From assembly GCF_009931435.1 (NCBI RefSeq), contig NZ_CP043414.1: 64,000 nucleotides of DNA. The stretch is one strand, 5' to 3'. Origin of the DNA: Escherichia coli. Its GTDB lineage: Bacteria; Pseudomonadota; Gammaproteobacteria; Enterobacterales; Enterobacteriaceae. Position numbers and translations under genes: made by a program. A model generated the notes under the pieces. That model had not been told where the DNA came from. It did not search any database and saw only the letters and a program-made list of their open reading frames with translations. Positions 7,122 to 29,613 of this stretch are shown in pieces (position 1 is the stretch's first letter; the number at the start of each line of letters is the position of its first letter).

Positions 7122-7730
7122 TCAGGTGCGCTTATCGTCAACCGTTGTGCGGTATGCCAGGAGCACGTACTGATCCATCAGATCCGTCAGTGCTGCGCTC
7201 TGCTTCTGACGGTTGATGATCCATTCCTCCAGCTCTTTTTCTGATTTCCGTTTCAGATTCTCCGTCCAGTCGTCAAGGCAGTTTCCGGTCATTAAATCAA
7301 GCCAGCAAAGCCAGACCAGTTTGAGGCGCAACTCCGTGCCACCAAACTGACGGAAGAGGCTGATCAGTTTATTTGCCAGCGAACGCTGCCTCAGACGTTC
7401 ACATTCAGACAGGAGAATGCCTTCCAGCATCGGATGATGAACCAGCAGATGTTCACTGGTGCATAAATTCACTATCAGATCATCATCCAGGGGCGGCGTG
7501 GTCCGTTTGTCCGGACCATAAATCAGCCGGTGCAGACTCTGGGGTACGATGGCAATCTCCGGTTTTTCACCATTGAATGACACCCACCCGGGCGTCAGAT
7601 TATGGAAGTAGTAGATATTCGGATGACACACGCCCCAGGATACGGCGTGCCGGGTGAAGCCGGTCAGCCATTTCTGGTAGCTTTCGTGGAGCAGCTCGTA
7701 ACGGGTCTGATACTGTGGTTTCATTTTCAT
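7122..7730 (-). CDS. Hypothetical protein (202 aa) downstream of alpA on the same strand
   Basis: ORF 7122..7871; internal ATG at 7730 (MKMKPQYQ...) has a GAGGAA Shine-Dalgarno 6 nt upstream; no family recognised. Confidence 0.5.
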   Translation of the reverse strand: MKMKPQYQTRYELLHESYQKWLTGFTRHAVSWGVCHPNIYYFHNLTPGWVSFNGEKPEIAIVPQSLHRLIYGPDKRTTPPLDDDLIVNLCTSEHLLVHHPMLEGILLSECERLRQRSLANKLISLFRQFGGTELRLKLVWLCWLDLMTGNCLDDWTENLKRKSEKELEEWIINRQKQSAALTDLMDQYVLLAYRTTVDDKRT

Positions 7731-7810
7731 ATTCCTCACGGGAGATAACAGGCAGCAGAACGCCGCCGGCAGGCCGGAGACTGCGTCTGCTGCAGATGAA
7801 CGGTTAAGAA

Positions 7811-8017
7811 TTACGGACGGGACTGTGCAATACGCGCCTGCAGCCAGGCTTCCACTTCGCTTTTCAGCCATCGGGAGCTGCGGCCCATTTTGATGGGCGC
7901 AGGAAAGTCACCATCCTTGATGAGTTTGTAAAACCACTTATCGGTCAGGCCGGTCAGTTGAGTGATAAATGCCATGTCGACCATCTGGTCATCCATCAGT
8001 GAAACTGGGGTGATCAT
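7811..8017 (-). CDS. alpA: AlpA-family prophage transcriptional regulator (MerR-like HTH)
   Basis: MITPVSLMDDQMVDMAFITQLTGLTDKWFYKLIKDG...RWLKSEVEAWL pattern typical of the AlpA family; ATG 8017 preceded by GAGGAA. Confidence 0.75.
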   Translation of the reverse strand: MITPVSLMDDQMVDMAFITQLTGLTDKWFYKLIKDGDFPAPIKMGRSSRWLKSEVEAWLQARIAQSRP

Positions 8018-8563
8018 GAGAATGTTCCTCCGGATGTTGTTAAACCAGCCGGTGTGGTCATGAAAACAACGCACCACCTTCACCGGCATAACAACCGGGG
8101 AGAAACGTAAAAAATAATCGGGAATGTGACCGCCAGGAGATAAACGGGGAGGTTACGGTGGCTGAGCCGTACCGGTATGCCGGGTGGTTGTTACGAAACG
8201 ATGCTTCCGCACGCGCGCGCGATAAAGAAGGGATGATTTTCGTGAGGAAGAGGGGAAAACTGGCGTTCTGATAATTGCAGAGTTATTTACGGGGCGGTTA
8301 CGATGGGGCAGACCGTGTCCGGTGGGCAGGCGACAGGTATCACCGATGGGATAAGACTGTCTGATTGGTATTATAAATATATAAGAGAGATCAAACACAT
8401 GAGATCAAATACATGAGTTCATATATGTGAAATAAACACGGTGAGTGTGATCAGTGGGCATGATGAGAACGCAGTAGCAACAGACTGCGCTATCCCTGAT
8501 AGCTGGCGTATAACCTGCGTATATAAAACGTACCAGCAACGCACGTGAACAGAGTGCATTAAG

Positions 8564-8579
8564 CATCCGTCGTTGACAC
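8564..8579. repeat. 16 nt identical to the IS100 right terminal repeat (catccgtcgttgacac); solo IS21-family end remnant
   Basis: Exact match to 25513-25528 plus flanking c of the IS100 copy in this window. Confidence 0.5.
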
Positions 8580-9329
8580 CGACCTGGTGAGTGACAGTCT
8601 GAGAGACCGGTTAAGTGGTGGTACGGGAGTAATGAGTTTGGGGTGGGTACCAGAATGCCAGTCTGGCGGTATGCTGACAGTATCACGTTAATTGCAGCAT
8701 AAAGTGATGAGAGGCTAATGGAAGTTAAAACCAGAGCAGTTCCGTCGTTGTTCATCCCGGGAGACGCTGGAAAAAGTGATTTCCCACACGCGTTATAAGC
8801 TTACTCCAGCGGAGATGGAAGCCTTCAACTCTGCGGTCGATCACCGACTGGCAGAACTGACAATGAACAAGCTTTACGATCGTGTTCCCGCTTCAGTCTG
8901 GAAATATGTCATCTGAGCGTTCGGTAATCACAACTGCATCGCGCCAGGTGTTATCCGCTTTGTGATTCTTATTGGCTCTTCTCAGGTTATTAAAAGCTGA
9001 ATATGTTCCTGTTGTCGGGAACCAGGATAATACCGGGAGCGTTAAGCGGTATAGCGACAACAAAGAATTCGAAATCAAAAGGGAATGGTGCCGGAGGCGT
9101 GGGCGGTAATAGGCTGATTTTCAGGTATTACCGGCTTACAACGTGTGGTTGATATTGAGGGGCTGTGAGTTTCGCGTATTTGTCAGAAACCCAGATGAGT
9201 TTTCCTGTATGGGACGAAATAAGGCAGCGGCAATACCTGGAAAATTTAATATGGTATGAAGGAGAACCTGTCGGTTACGCTTAATATACACGGTACACTG
9301 TCAGCTCAGGGGATACATGAACCGTTATC

Positions 9330-9539
9330 TCACCAGCTACACAGTATACACACACTGACGCTGACAGTAGTCAGCAGGACCACAATAATCAGCGCCAGCA
9401 GTATGGTAACGATACGGTCTGTATTCCGGTAGTAGCCGAAGGGGTCGACAGAACCACAATACGGGCAACACACTGTATTATTAGTAATCGCGTTTCCACA
9501 GTCCCTGCACTTCTTTTGCGTATCACCATAACTCCCTCC
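9330..9539 (-). pseudogene. Small zinc-ribbon plus transmembrane-helix protein, apparently frameshifted
   Basis: ATG at 9529 with strong GAGGAGGGAG Shine-Dalgarno opens a 46-codon frame; the -1 frame encodes CRDCGNAITNNTVCCPYCGS followed by a hydrophobic helix (IVTILLALIIVVLLTTVSVSV) but lacks a start codon. Confidence 0.4.
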
Positions 9540-9727
9540 TCACAGCCTTACCCGTAACCGGTTTTTTACATTAAAAAACAACGCTGAAAATTCAACCGTC
9601 AGTCCGGAGACGACCGTTCGGGTTATCACAGAGTGCCTGAGACAGTGTCCTGCCGGAGGTCACTTCAGGGACTCTGCGCATTTTTTACGACGTGGCTATT
9701 CCGTATGAACCATACGGAGATTTAACC

Positions 9728-10297
9728 ATGACCTACAAATACAACCCCTTCTGGCAGCAACGTATTCGTGAGACGGTGCGGCACGCACTGAATGTTCATC
9801 CCCGCCTGACGGCATTGCGGGTTGACCTGCGTCTCCCGGATGTACCGGCAGCAACGGACGCAGCTGTGATATCCCGCTTCATCAATGCCCTGAAAGCCCG
9901 AATCGACGCTTACCAGAAACGTAAGCATCGGGAAGGTAAACGCGTGCATCCCACCACCCTGCATTACGTCTGGGCCCGGGAGTTTGGGGAGTTCAAAGGT
10001 AAAAAACACTATCACCTGATGCTGCTGGTCAACCGGGATACCTGGTGTCGTGCCGGTGATTACCGCGCTCCGGAGTCTCTGGCCGGGATGATTAAACAGG
10101 CGTGGTGCAGTGCCCTGGGAGTGGATGTCGGGTGCCATGCCACGCTGGTGCATTTTCCGGCCTGGCCGGCGGTGTGGCTGGCGCGTAATGATGACACCGG
10201 CTTTCAGCAGGTGCTGGAACGTGCTAACTATCTGGCGAAGGAGCATACCAAAGCTCACTGCACCGGTGAGCGCAACTTTGGCTGCAGTCGTGGCTGA
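9728..10297 (+). CDS. HUH-type rolling-circle Rep-like protein (YagK/YfjJ / inovirus gp2-like family)
   Basis: HUH motif KKHYHLML and YxxK motif (NYLAKE) near the C-terminus; ATG 9728 with GGAG Shine-Dalgarno embedded in an 8 bp palindrome (9700-9718). Confidence 0.65.
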   Translation: MTYKYNPFWQQRIRETVRHALNVHPRLTALRVDLRLPDVPAATDAAVISRFINALKARIDAYQKRKHREGKRVHPTTLHYVWAREFGEFKGKKHYHLMLLVNRDTWCRAGDYRAPESLAGMIKQAWCSALGVDVGCHATLVHFPAWPAVWLARNDDTGFQQVLERANYLAKEHTKAHCTGERNFGCSRG

Positions 10298-10864: not shown

Positions 10865-11833
<969 letters not shown>

Positions 11834-12018: not shown

Positions 12019-12423
12019 ATGCGAATTCTGAACTGCTATATGGCGAATGACAGCAAAGGCCATTTTGTTACGGCGAAAGAAGCCGCGAAGAACAACCGAC
12101 AGGACGTTTTGTGCTGTGTGTCCTGTGGTTGTCCGTTAACACTTAAGCGGGGCAATGACGGACAACCGCCGTGGTTTGAACATGACCAGATGACTGTTGC
12201 TGCGAAAATCCTGCTGCGATGCACCTGGCTTGACCCGGCAGAGAAAGAGGCCCGTCGTTTGCATCTGCAGGGCATGACGGTTCCGGATTATACGGTGAAG
12301 GTGAGAAAGTGGTTTTGTGTGATGTGTGACGAAGATTATGAGGGGGAAAAGTGCTGCCCGCGTTGTGGTACCGGGGTATACAGCAGGGATAGGGGGGCTG
12401 CAGGAGGGCAACTGGAAGGATAG
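12019..12423 (+). CDS. Uncharacterised zinc-ribbon protein (paralog 2)
   Basis: 134 aa; CCVSCGC ... PPWFEH ... CVMC-x9-CCPRC; strong AGGAGGA Shine-Dalgarno; same architecture as 10463..10855. Confidence 0.6.
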   Translation: MRILNCYMANDSKGHFVTAKEAAKNNRQDVLCCVSCGCPLTLKRGNDGQPPWFEHDQMTVAAKILLRCTWLDPAEKEARRLHLQGMTVPDYTVKVRKWFCVMCDEDYEGEKCCPRCGTGVYSRDRGAAGGQLEG

Positions 12424-19602: not shown

Positions 19603-19678
19603 TGGCTCCTCTGACTGGACTCGAACCAGTGACATACGGATTAACAGTCCGCCGTTCTACCGACTGAACTACAGAGGA
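19603..19678 (-). tRNA. asnV: tRNA-Asn (GUU)
   Basis: Exact 76 nt tRNA-Asn sequence, reverse complement. Confidence 0.95.
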
Positions 19679-27816: not shown

Positions 27817-28158
27817 TGGAATGATCTCCTCGAAAATTTATTTACATTACTGGTAAATCGTTAACATGTGTTAATTCGGCATATTATATCATAACAGGAA
27901 AAATCTCGTCTATTAGGAATAAAAATATTCTAAAGCCATAATCTTATATTTAATTTTATAAAAACTTATATTGTTGGCGGGATTTTTTATAATTGTGTTT
28001 TGAAAGCATACTTGCTTTTAATATGTGGAAATCATTAAGACGATAATAAAACACGTATCCGCCCAAGGAAGCAAACAGCCCACGATTATTGCAGGCTATT
28101 TGCCAGGTCTCTTACTTACTCCTTCACATCTATTTCTGATAAGAAGGTTCAGAACTTA

Positions 28159-29613
28159 TTATCGGAACGGCGGCTCATTAAAGGTTCGTAATTTACGCGA
28201 ATGCAGTCGGTCGCCTTCTGCGCGCAGCAAATCGATCGCCCGAATGCCAATTTGCAGATGTTCGGAAATAGCGCCTTCATAAAAACGGTTAGCCTGGCCG
28301 GGAAGTTTAATCTCGCCATGCAACGGTTTATCTGAAACACACAGTAGTGTCCCGTATGGCACGCGGAAACGATATCCTTGCGCGGCAATGGTTGCACTTT
28401 CCATATCAATTGCTACGGCCCGGCTTAAGTTAAAACGAAGTGCAGAAGCTGAGTAACGTAATTCCCAGTTCCTGTCATCTGTGGTTACCACAGTACCAGT
28501 ACGTAGCCGCTGTTTGACTTCCTCACCGGGCCTGCCGCTCACCAGCTTGGTGGCGTCATAAAGCGCACGTTGCACTTCAGCAATGCTCGGAATAGGAATA
28601 TCGGGCGGCAGAACCGCATCAAGAACGTGGTCATCGCGTAAATAAGCGTGTGCAAGTACATAATCGCCAATGGCCTGACTTTCACGTAATCCGCCACAGT
28701 GACCAATCATCAACCAGACATCCGGGCGTAGCACTGCCAGATGATCGCAGATGGTTTTAGCATTTGACGGTCCCACGCCAATATTCACCAGAGTAATACC
28801 CTGACCATTGGCGGTAATTAAATGCCATGCTGGCATCTGATGTTTTTTCCATGCAAGGTCGGAAATGGCTTCTTCTGGCGCTTCGGTTTCGGCGGTGATC
28901 CAGTTCCCGCCAGCACAAGAAAGGGCAATGTAGGGACTATCAGGATCGAGGATCTGGCTGCATCCCCAACGAACGAATTCATCCACATAACGTGTGTAGT
29001 TGGTAAACAAGACGAACGGCTGAAAATGTTCAACTGGCGTACCGGTATAATGGCGCAACCGCGCGAGGGAAAAATCGACGCGGCGCGCATCAAAATGCGA
29101 TAGCGGGGAGAATTCAGTTGGATGATAAATGCCGTCTGCAGTTTCATCGCCAATTTGCGCCAGTTCTGTTGTCGGGAAGTAGCGAGTTAACCCAGCGCTC
29201 ATTGAGCGATCAAGTGTCAATTCAGAGCCATCGATGACATAAGGATAGGGGATTTCATGCTGCGAGGGTTGCACCGAGATATGCGCACCATAATCCTGAT
29301 ACAGCAACGTAAGTTGTTCATTGAGATACGAACGAAAGAGAGTAGGGCGAGTAATCGTGGTGGTGTAGCTGCCTGCGTGAGTAAAACGACCAAATGCGCG
29401 CGTTTTGGGGGGATTGGTTGTGCTACCGTCCCAGGTTACGGTCAGTGATGGATAGACAAAAAGACCTTGTTTGCGGGCGTTTTCATCAGGTAATTCGCCA
29501 CTTGTAATATAGTTGCCAATGGCGTTGCGTAATGCGACTACAGATTGCTCATACAGCGCGTCGAGTTTATCCAGTGCCTGAGCTGGGGTCAGACCGGAGC
29601 CCTTATTATTCAT
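28159..29613 (-). CDS. amn: AMP nucleosidase
   Basis: 484 aa from MNNKGSGLTPAQALDKLDALYEQ...; ORF-track start at 29769 is an upstream over-extension. Confidence 0.9.
   Translation of the reverse strand: MNNKGSGLTPAQALDKLDALYEQSVVALRNAIGNYITSGELPDENARKQGLFVYPSLTVTWDGSTTNPPKTRAFGRFTHAGSYTTTITRPTLFRSYLNEQLTLLYQDYGAHISVQPSQHEIPYPYVIDGSELTLDRSMSAGLTRYFPTTELAQIGDETADGIYHPTEFSPLSHFDARRVDFSLARLRHYTGTPVEHFQPFVLFTNYTRYVDEFVRWGCSQILDPDSPYIALSCAGGNWITAETEAPEEAISDLAWKKHQMPAWHLITANGQGITLVNIGVGPSNAKTICDHLAVLRPDVWLMIGHCGGLRESQAIGDYVLAHAYLRDDHVLDAVLPPDIPIPSIAEVQRALYDATKLVSGRPGEEVKQRLRTGTVVTTDDRNWELRYSASALRFNLSRAVAIDMESATIAAQGYRFRVPYGTLLCVSDKPLHGEIKLPGQANRFYEGAISEHLQIGIRAIDLLRAEGDRLHSRKLRTFNEPPFR

Follow-up and report, generated by a model that had tools for sequence, protein, structure and literature searches.

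A probable pseudogene allele of a horizontally acquired hha2-type Hha paralogue in a CP4-44-family island of Escherichia coli

Gene organisation of the island

The window analysed here is a stretch of 64,000 nucleotides of Escherichia coli DNA (contig NZ_CP043414.1 of assembly GCF_009931435.1). Comparison with strain KSC9, which is 100% identical to it, identifies the cobU / CP4-44 / yeeX (tmaR) region, with an island lying between cobU on one side and agn43 and yeeR on the other. According to the KSC9 annotation, the genes follow one another along the + strand of the window in the order yeeR (−), agn43 (−), a GTPase gene (−), YfjI (+), a hypothetical gene (−), an alpA-like gene (−), hha (+) and an inovirus Gp2 gene (+). 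Beyond the last of these come zinc-ribbon genes, then broken copies of IS110, ISL3, IS30 and IS4, and then cobU. The alpA-like helix-turn-helix regulator gene (7811–8017, − strand, mapped from the PGAP annotation of KSC9) and the inovirus Gp2 family (YfjJ-like) gene (9728–10297, + strand) are respectively the upstream and downstream neighbours of the hha gene in all related islands. A position between alpA-like and inovirus-Gp2-like genes of a CP4-44/CP4-57-like island, linked to agn43–yeeR, is that of the hha2- and hha3-type genes.

No integrase gene is present in the island in the KSC9-mapped annotation of the window. The cobU-side end of the island is made up of the broken IS110, ISL3, IS30 and IS4 copies together with a cobalamin-gene fragment. 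This end takes in 10865–11833 and the IS fragments between the second zinc-ribbon gene, which ends at 12423, and cobU. Four tRNA-Asn genes and one tRNA-Ser gene are found in the window, at 19603, 22012, 26572, 40049 and 41116.

The alpA-like gene is separated from the hha start by some 630 bp of non-coding DNA (8090–8717), which shows high identity across islands. A long leader, an H-NS nucleation site and a regulatory region are all candidate roles for this segment. An Rfam scan of 7700–9800 at E ≤ 1 returned just two sub-threshold chance matches and no known RNA element, and a consensus scan of 8000–9700 for promoters and terminators found none upstream of the gene, its sites being no more numerous than those in shuffled sequences.

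Downstream, on the − strand at 9330–9529, lies a small ORF for a cysteine-rich membrane protein with a hydrophobic C-terminal stretch. In BH100 and EC14 it is 65–66 aa long and is annotated as a 'hypothetical protein'. In the window it is frameshifted by the loss of one A from an A-run at 9514–9517, and it is unannotated in the identical KSC9. With this neighbouring ORF and the IS110 and ISL3 genes also broken, the island as a whole appears to be decaying. The stretch between the alpA-like and inovirus Gp2 genes does look empty, and a preliminary description of this DNA had called it ORF-poor; it nevertheless holds two small genes of a decaying CP4-44-type island, both of them frameshifted near their 5′ ends.

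Identity of the open frame

The first of these genes was noticed as an orphan C-terminal protein fragment. On the + strand, the frame that opens immediately after the TAA at 8716–8718 reads WKLKPEQFRRCSSRETLEKVISHTRYKLTPAEMEAFNSAVDHRLAELTMNKLYDRVPASVWKYVI and closes with the TGA at 8914–8916. The peptide originally quoted from this frame is correct as written, whereas the coordinates given for it, 8763–8915, are slightly off: position 8763 does not fall on a codon start, the frame itself opening at 8719 and RETLEK starting at 8758.

Positions 8719–8913 encode a near-complete Hha/YmoA domain. The Pfam model PF05321 (HHA) is matched across profile positions 3–57 of 57 with an E-value of 6.2e-27 and a score of 94.1 bits (cut-off 25), and the NCBIfam Hha subfamily model NF008191 is matched with 95.2 bits against a cut-off of 90. 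By sequence match, then, the frame is a member of PF05321. The Pfam and NCBIfam matches both exceed their cut-offs, and the frame is far from a chance one; the possibility of a random open frame, conditional on no homologue being found, falls away with the E-value of the HHA match.

With an intact hha2-type allele as the tblastn query, 8737–8913 aligned to residues 12–70 at 96.6% amino acid identity (E = 6e-37), a close identity to the hha2 type. The Hha-homologous coding remnant supported by tblastn, Pfam and NCBIfam thus comprises residues 12–70 of a 70-aa protein and the stop codon (8737..8916, + strand). No complete Hha gene of some 70 aa, translatable from a proper start and covering helices 1 to 4, is present. 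In a megablast search, the 1-kb region around the frame was found in 3604 of 5426 complete E. coli genomes, and the gene was annotated as 'Hha/YmoA family nucleoid-associated regulatory protein' in all of the records listed.

A 14-bp deletion near the 5′ end

Strain DETEC-S566 carries an intact 70-aa gene between alpA-like and inovirus-Gp2-family genes, with the product MEVKTKEDWLYQFRRCSSRETLEKVISH...WKYVI. The window is collinear with this gene, including the upstream region, the Shine–Dalgarno-like AGAGG and the ATG, with the sole exception of 14 bp (alignments A1 and A5). The missing 14 bp are AGGACTGGCTGTAT in DETEC-S566, and intact alleles carry A(G/A)GACTGGCTGTAT between positions 8736 and 8737, which form the deletion junction according to alignments A1, A2 and A5 and the comparison of alleles. 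Falling just after codon 6, the deletion takes out codons E7–Y11 and shifts the frame.

The ancestral start region is still in place. The AGAGG motif (8710–8714, + strand) was read from the sequence and is the same in intact alleles; its duplex with the anti-Shine–Dalgarno sequence has a calculated energy of −5.8 kcal/mol. Intact alleles begin MEVKTKEDWLYQFRRCSS... at the position equivalent to the ATG at 8718–8720 (+ strand), and as a result of the 14-bp loss this ATG and the Hha frame are now offset by 1 nt. From the ATG the window reads MEVKTRAVPSLFIPGDAGKSDFPHAL and then a stop, a frameshifted 5′ reading frame of 26 codons plus TAA (8718–8798, + strand). Ribosomes starting at the retained ATG would be expected to make an unrelated 26-aa peptide, terminating at 8796–8798, and no Hha-like protein would be made from the window locus. 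That the 59 downstream Hha codons are still open is accounted for only by the youth of the lesion in this lineage and the shortness of the frame.

These alignments bear directly on the earlier proposal that the fragment is the 3′ remnant of a gene with a deleted 5′ part, perhaps that of the missing integrase or of some other island gene. The proposal could draw on the absence of an integrase from the island and on the replacement of its cobU-side end by IS fragments, and Hha fragments with missing or replaced 5′ ends do occur at other loci (hha3 of strain 042, Ec42 and NMBU). At the window locus, however, nothing of the 5′ end, the ATG or the upstream region is lost save for the 14 bp, and all are collinear with intact alleles, which refutes a 5′-deleted remnant here. 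The HHA models gave the sole family matches, with no similarity to tyrosine or serine recombinases, and an integrase remnant was rejected on this ground and on that of the intact 5′ region. Nor is a stray piece of some other island gene involved, an hha2-type Hha/YmoA paralogue being a normal resident of this island family. The supposition that the gene is damaged rather than working was borne out, and it was indeed comparison with homologues, as had been proposed at the outset, that decided the matter.

It might also be asked whether the frameshift is overcome during expression. Were ribosomes to slip by +1 on an A-run, the Hha frame would be restored, and the product would be either a fusion peptide or a 65-aa Hha lacking a short internal segment; the runs AAA-A at 8727–8730 and GAAAAAG at 8770–8776 are suitably placed, and a slip at either gives an in-frame product. 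However, no stimulatory element accompanies them, whether a rare or stop codon in the A site or an upstream Shine–Dalgarno sequence at the right distance, and transcriptional slippage would call for longer runs than these of four and five bases. Nor did the Rfam scan yield anything of the kind. The arrangement moreover arose by deletion within an ordinary gene, whose intact alleles need no recoding. Restoration of the frame by slippage is accordingly rated extremely improbable, and a programmed frameshift was rejected because the stimulatory signal is absent and the intact ancestor needs none.

The reading that we favour, to which we assign a probability of roughly 0.85, is that the orphan peptide belongs to a pseudogene allele of a horizontally acquired hha2-type Hha paralogue carried by a CP4-44-family island. 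The gene family, the island context and the common pseudogene allele are all already known.

Predicted structure and function of the intact protein

Gapless alignments were obtained of the intact allele with Hha residues 7–71 (PDB 1JW2, 4ICG), with YmoA (2K5S) and with Cnu (2JQT), and the ADHRLAELTMNKLYD core is conserved between it and the Hha family structures. In an AF2 model of the intact allele (mean pLDDT 78), helices span residues 6–13, 19–30 and 35–60. With helix boundaries taken from this model, the deletion is predicted to destroy helix 1. By homology to Hha, YmoA and Cnu, the intact 70-aa helical protein would bind the N-terminal domain of H-NS and strengthen the silencing of foreign genes, an effect reported of hha2/hha3 in the case of an antigen-43 gene. 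This H-NS-binding, co-silencing function would be lost at the window locus.

Essential roles in H-NS binding are reported for two residues of Hha, E25 and D48. Their equivalents here, E23 and D46, are both encoded in the open frame of the window.

The core hha gene has tomB upstream of it, and no broken copy of it is known in E. coli. Upstream of the window copy, no tomB/ybaJ-like gene was found: 8090–8717 contains no ORF of note, and a tblastn search of the window with TomB, in itself a weak test, gave a best E-value of 1.3. No second hha-like sequence is present in the window.

Is a truncated product made?

The frame had been said to lack any ATG, GTG or TTG start. This proved incorrect, as the in-frame GTG at 8776 gives a 46-aa ORF (8776–8916, + strand), the longest in the Hha frame with a canonical start. 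In identical and near-identical genomes, PGAP instead calls a 49-aa CDS with a CTG start (8767–8916, + strand; WP_071527034.1). A Shine–Dalgarno-like GGGAG at 8759–8763 lies 11–12 nt 5′ of the GTG, with a duplex energy of −7.4 kcal/mol; a match as good is found at 21% of positions in the region and is thus not unusual. GTG 8776 corresponds to V25, inside helix 2 of the AF2 model, so that the product would begin midway along that helix, and E23 is encoded upstream of the GTG and would be missing from the 46-aa product.

It is conceivable, then, that translation of the locus from GTG 8776 (46 aa) or CTG 8767 (49 aa) still gives rise to a functional Hha-like peptide with a truncated N-terminus. 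Such a peptide, consisting of half of helix 2 with helices 3 and 4, would bind H-NS or interfere with Hha/H-NS complexes and would be under selection. In favour of this are the in-frame GTG with the GGGAG upstream of it, the retention of D46 as the equivalent of Hha D48, and the PGAP calls. In public protein collections the exact 49-aa product is found on at least 999 contigs and the 46-aa product on 270, under names that place them in the Hha/YmoA family or call them 'hemolysin activation protein'. The deletion allele is present in 23% of complete E. coli genomes and, as set out below, pN/pS is low between some deletion alleles. In enteroaggregative E. coli (EAEC) 042, hha3 is similarly truncated; this 5′-replaced gene is reported to affect ag43 expression, its mutant reportedly altering that of EC042_2242 (PMC4864382).

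The first point against a functional peptide is that a small helical bundle would lack helix 1 and half of helix 2, making stable folding doubtful; another is the position of the Hha E25 equivalent upstream of the GTG. The Shine–Dalgarno spacing is poor for both starts, and the motif itself is matched equally well at a fifth of positions in the region. The pattern of private changes among deletion alleles (16 nonsynonymous, 4 synonymous) resembles neutral change, and second frameshifts occur in some of these alleles. As for the precedent in 042, hha3 is expressed weakly, and later work from the same laboratory (PMC6480617) defines 'hha null' without hha3. A functional truncated product at the window locus is therefore considered unlikely. 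The same doubt attaches to the broader idea that loci with the 14-bp deletion and loci of the hha3 type yield helix-1-less Hha peptides of 46–58 aa which engage H-NS or titrate Hha, an improbable proposal. If true, it would account for the greater frequency of the broken allele over the intact one, and for the pristine state of the 3′ frame in many lineages, including beside ag43 EC042_2242.

Frequency and decay of the deletion allele

Returning to the pseudogene reading, the spread of the lesion was assessed with 40-mers centred on the junction, which can seed a megablast match only across that junction, so that the counts refer to close alleles only. The deletion-junction 40-mer was found in 1263 of 5426 complete E. 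coli genomes, at 1405 places and up to four times per genome, and the intact-junction 40-mer in 338. At about four times the frequency of the intact junction, the frameshifted form is the commonest form of the island-borne hha paralogue in complete E. coli genomes.

Alleles whose backgrounds have diverged carry this deletion, namely those of the window, 4/1-1, D8, JNE141411, ETEC4073 and D10, the last with quite different flanks. Reading of alignments A1 and A5 revealed no microhomology at the deletion ends, which makes a recurrent hot-spot deletion unlikely. A single origin, followed by spread through recombination between island copies, is favoured over recurrence.

Several deletion alleles have decayed further. 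ETEC4073 carries an additional 1-nt deletion, D10 an additional 12-nt deletion and stops, and the alleles of EC14 and 042 carry R48W, a change at a residue that does not vary in alignment A4. Among nine deletion alleles sampled, private substitutions in the 3′ part number 16 nonsynonymous to 4 synonymous, against 1–2 nonsynonymous to 3–4 synonymous in 5′-intact alleles, both of these being small samples. The ratio of 16:4 is close to the roughly 3:1 ratio of sites and thus looks neutral, so that the private changes in deletion alleles would fit neutral decay.

The 3′ part of the window allele itself has no private substitutions and keeps all residues conserved among alleles. Between the window and 4/1-1, both of which carry the deletion, 25% of synonymous and 1.5% of nonsynonymous sites differ (pN/pS 0.06), and some pairs of deletion alleles have pN/pS values of 0.05–0.15, as in intact genes. 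Recombination with intact island copies can explain these low values; otherwise continued selection would have to be invoked.

Independent pseudogenisation of the hha paralogue is frequent. The 99E2750 allele has a 22-bp tandem duplication of the Shine–Dalgarno and start region (AAGTGATGAGAGGCTA...) and several internal deletions, and the MEI2A allele has a 5-nt deletion.

Annotation and PCR detection

Genome annotation treats this one sequence inconsistently. For the same lesion, PGAP calls a 49-aa CDS beginning at a CTG in the genomes KSC9, BH100, EC14 and D8, whereas 94_0962, 4/1-1 and JNE141411 have it as a pseudogene 'missing N-terminus'. The lesion also matters for detection. Both published hha2 primers (PMC4864382, Supplementary Table 1; window 8800–8905) lie 3′ of the deletion site, and as a consequence the 'virulence indicator' PCR is blind to the difference between intact and frameshifted alleles. 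Against the window allele the two primers show 4 and 2 mismatches. BLAST-based calls of hha2 presence could share the problem. For biology at large the significance of the locus is small.

Comparison with other Hha-family genes

The chromosomal protein Hha (1JW2, 2MW2, 4ICG), together with YmoA (2K5S) and Cnu/YdgT (2JQT), shares a fold family with the product of the window copy, with the difference that the window copy is broken.

The closest counterparts are the island-borne paralogues of EAEC 042, in which hha2 (EC042_4516) and hha3 (EC042_4796) were defined and linked to agn43 (Prieto et al. 2016, PMC4864382). Both are reported to modulate ag43 EC042_2242 (PMC4864382), the only ag43 copy reported to respond to Hha paralogues, and both have been tied to the flu-yeeR-irmA cluster of CP4-44-type elements (Bernabeu et al. 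2019, PMC6480617).

The 70-aa hha2 gene of NC_017626 is intact and has the same architecture around it; the published primers match it exactly. It resembles the window copy in gene family and in gene order (alpA-like, hha, inovirus-Gp2, near agn43/yeeR), and the two differ by 3 nonsynonymous changes over the aligned 59 residues. Whereas hha2 is intact, the window copy is frameshifted, with 14 bp missing after codon 6, and it lies at the CP4-44 (cobU–yeeX) locus and not at that of hha2.

The published hha3 is itself N-terminally truncated or replaced. It is a 58-aa ORF (NC_017626, minus strand, 28133–28309 of the extracted region) whose 5′ end is unrelated sequence: the similarity to hha2 sets in at GGAGACGC, and through the loss of 1 nt a foreign frame with a GTG start (VAARNTSGDAGK...) has become joined to the Hha frame, leaving the product without helix 1 and without the equivalent of E25. 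Like the window copy, hha3 is island-borne, lacks the N-terminal helix and has the same gene neighbourhood; the lesions differ, however, in that the 5′ end of hha3 has been replaced and that of the window copy is the original one. In strain HS, an hha3-type copy is found at the CP4-44 locus.

A third hha-like locus is present in EAEC 042, where PMC4864382 and PMC6480617 count hha2 and hha3 only. It lies at the CP4-44 locus, adjoining ag43 EC042_2242 (NC_017626.1, 2329380–2329529, minus strand), and has the same 14-bp deletion together with A44V and R48W. The deletion alleles of KSC9, BH100, Nissle 1917 and the CP4-44 locus of EAEC 042 (WP_071527034.1, WP_052318419.1) share both the lesion and the type of locus with the window copy, from which they show no difference of substance; it is their annotation which alternates between a 49-aa CDS and a pseudogene.
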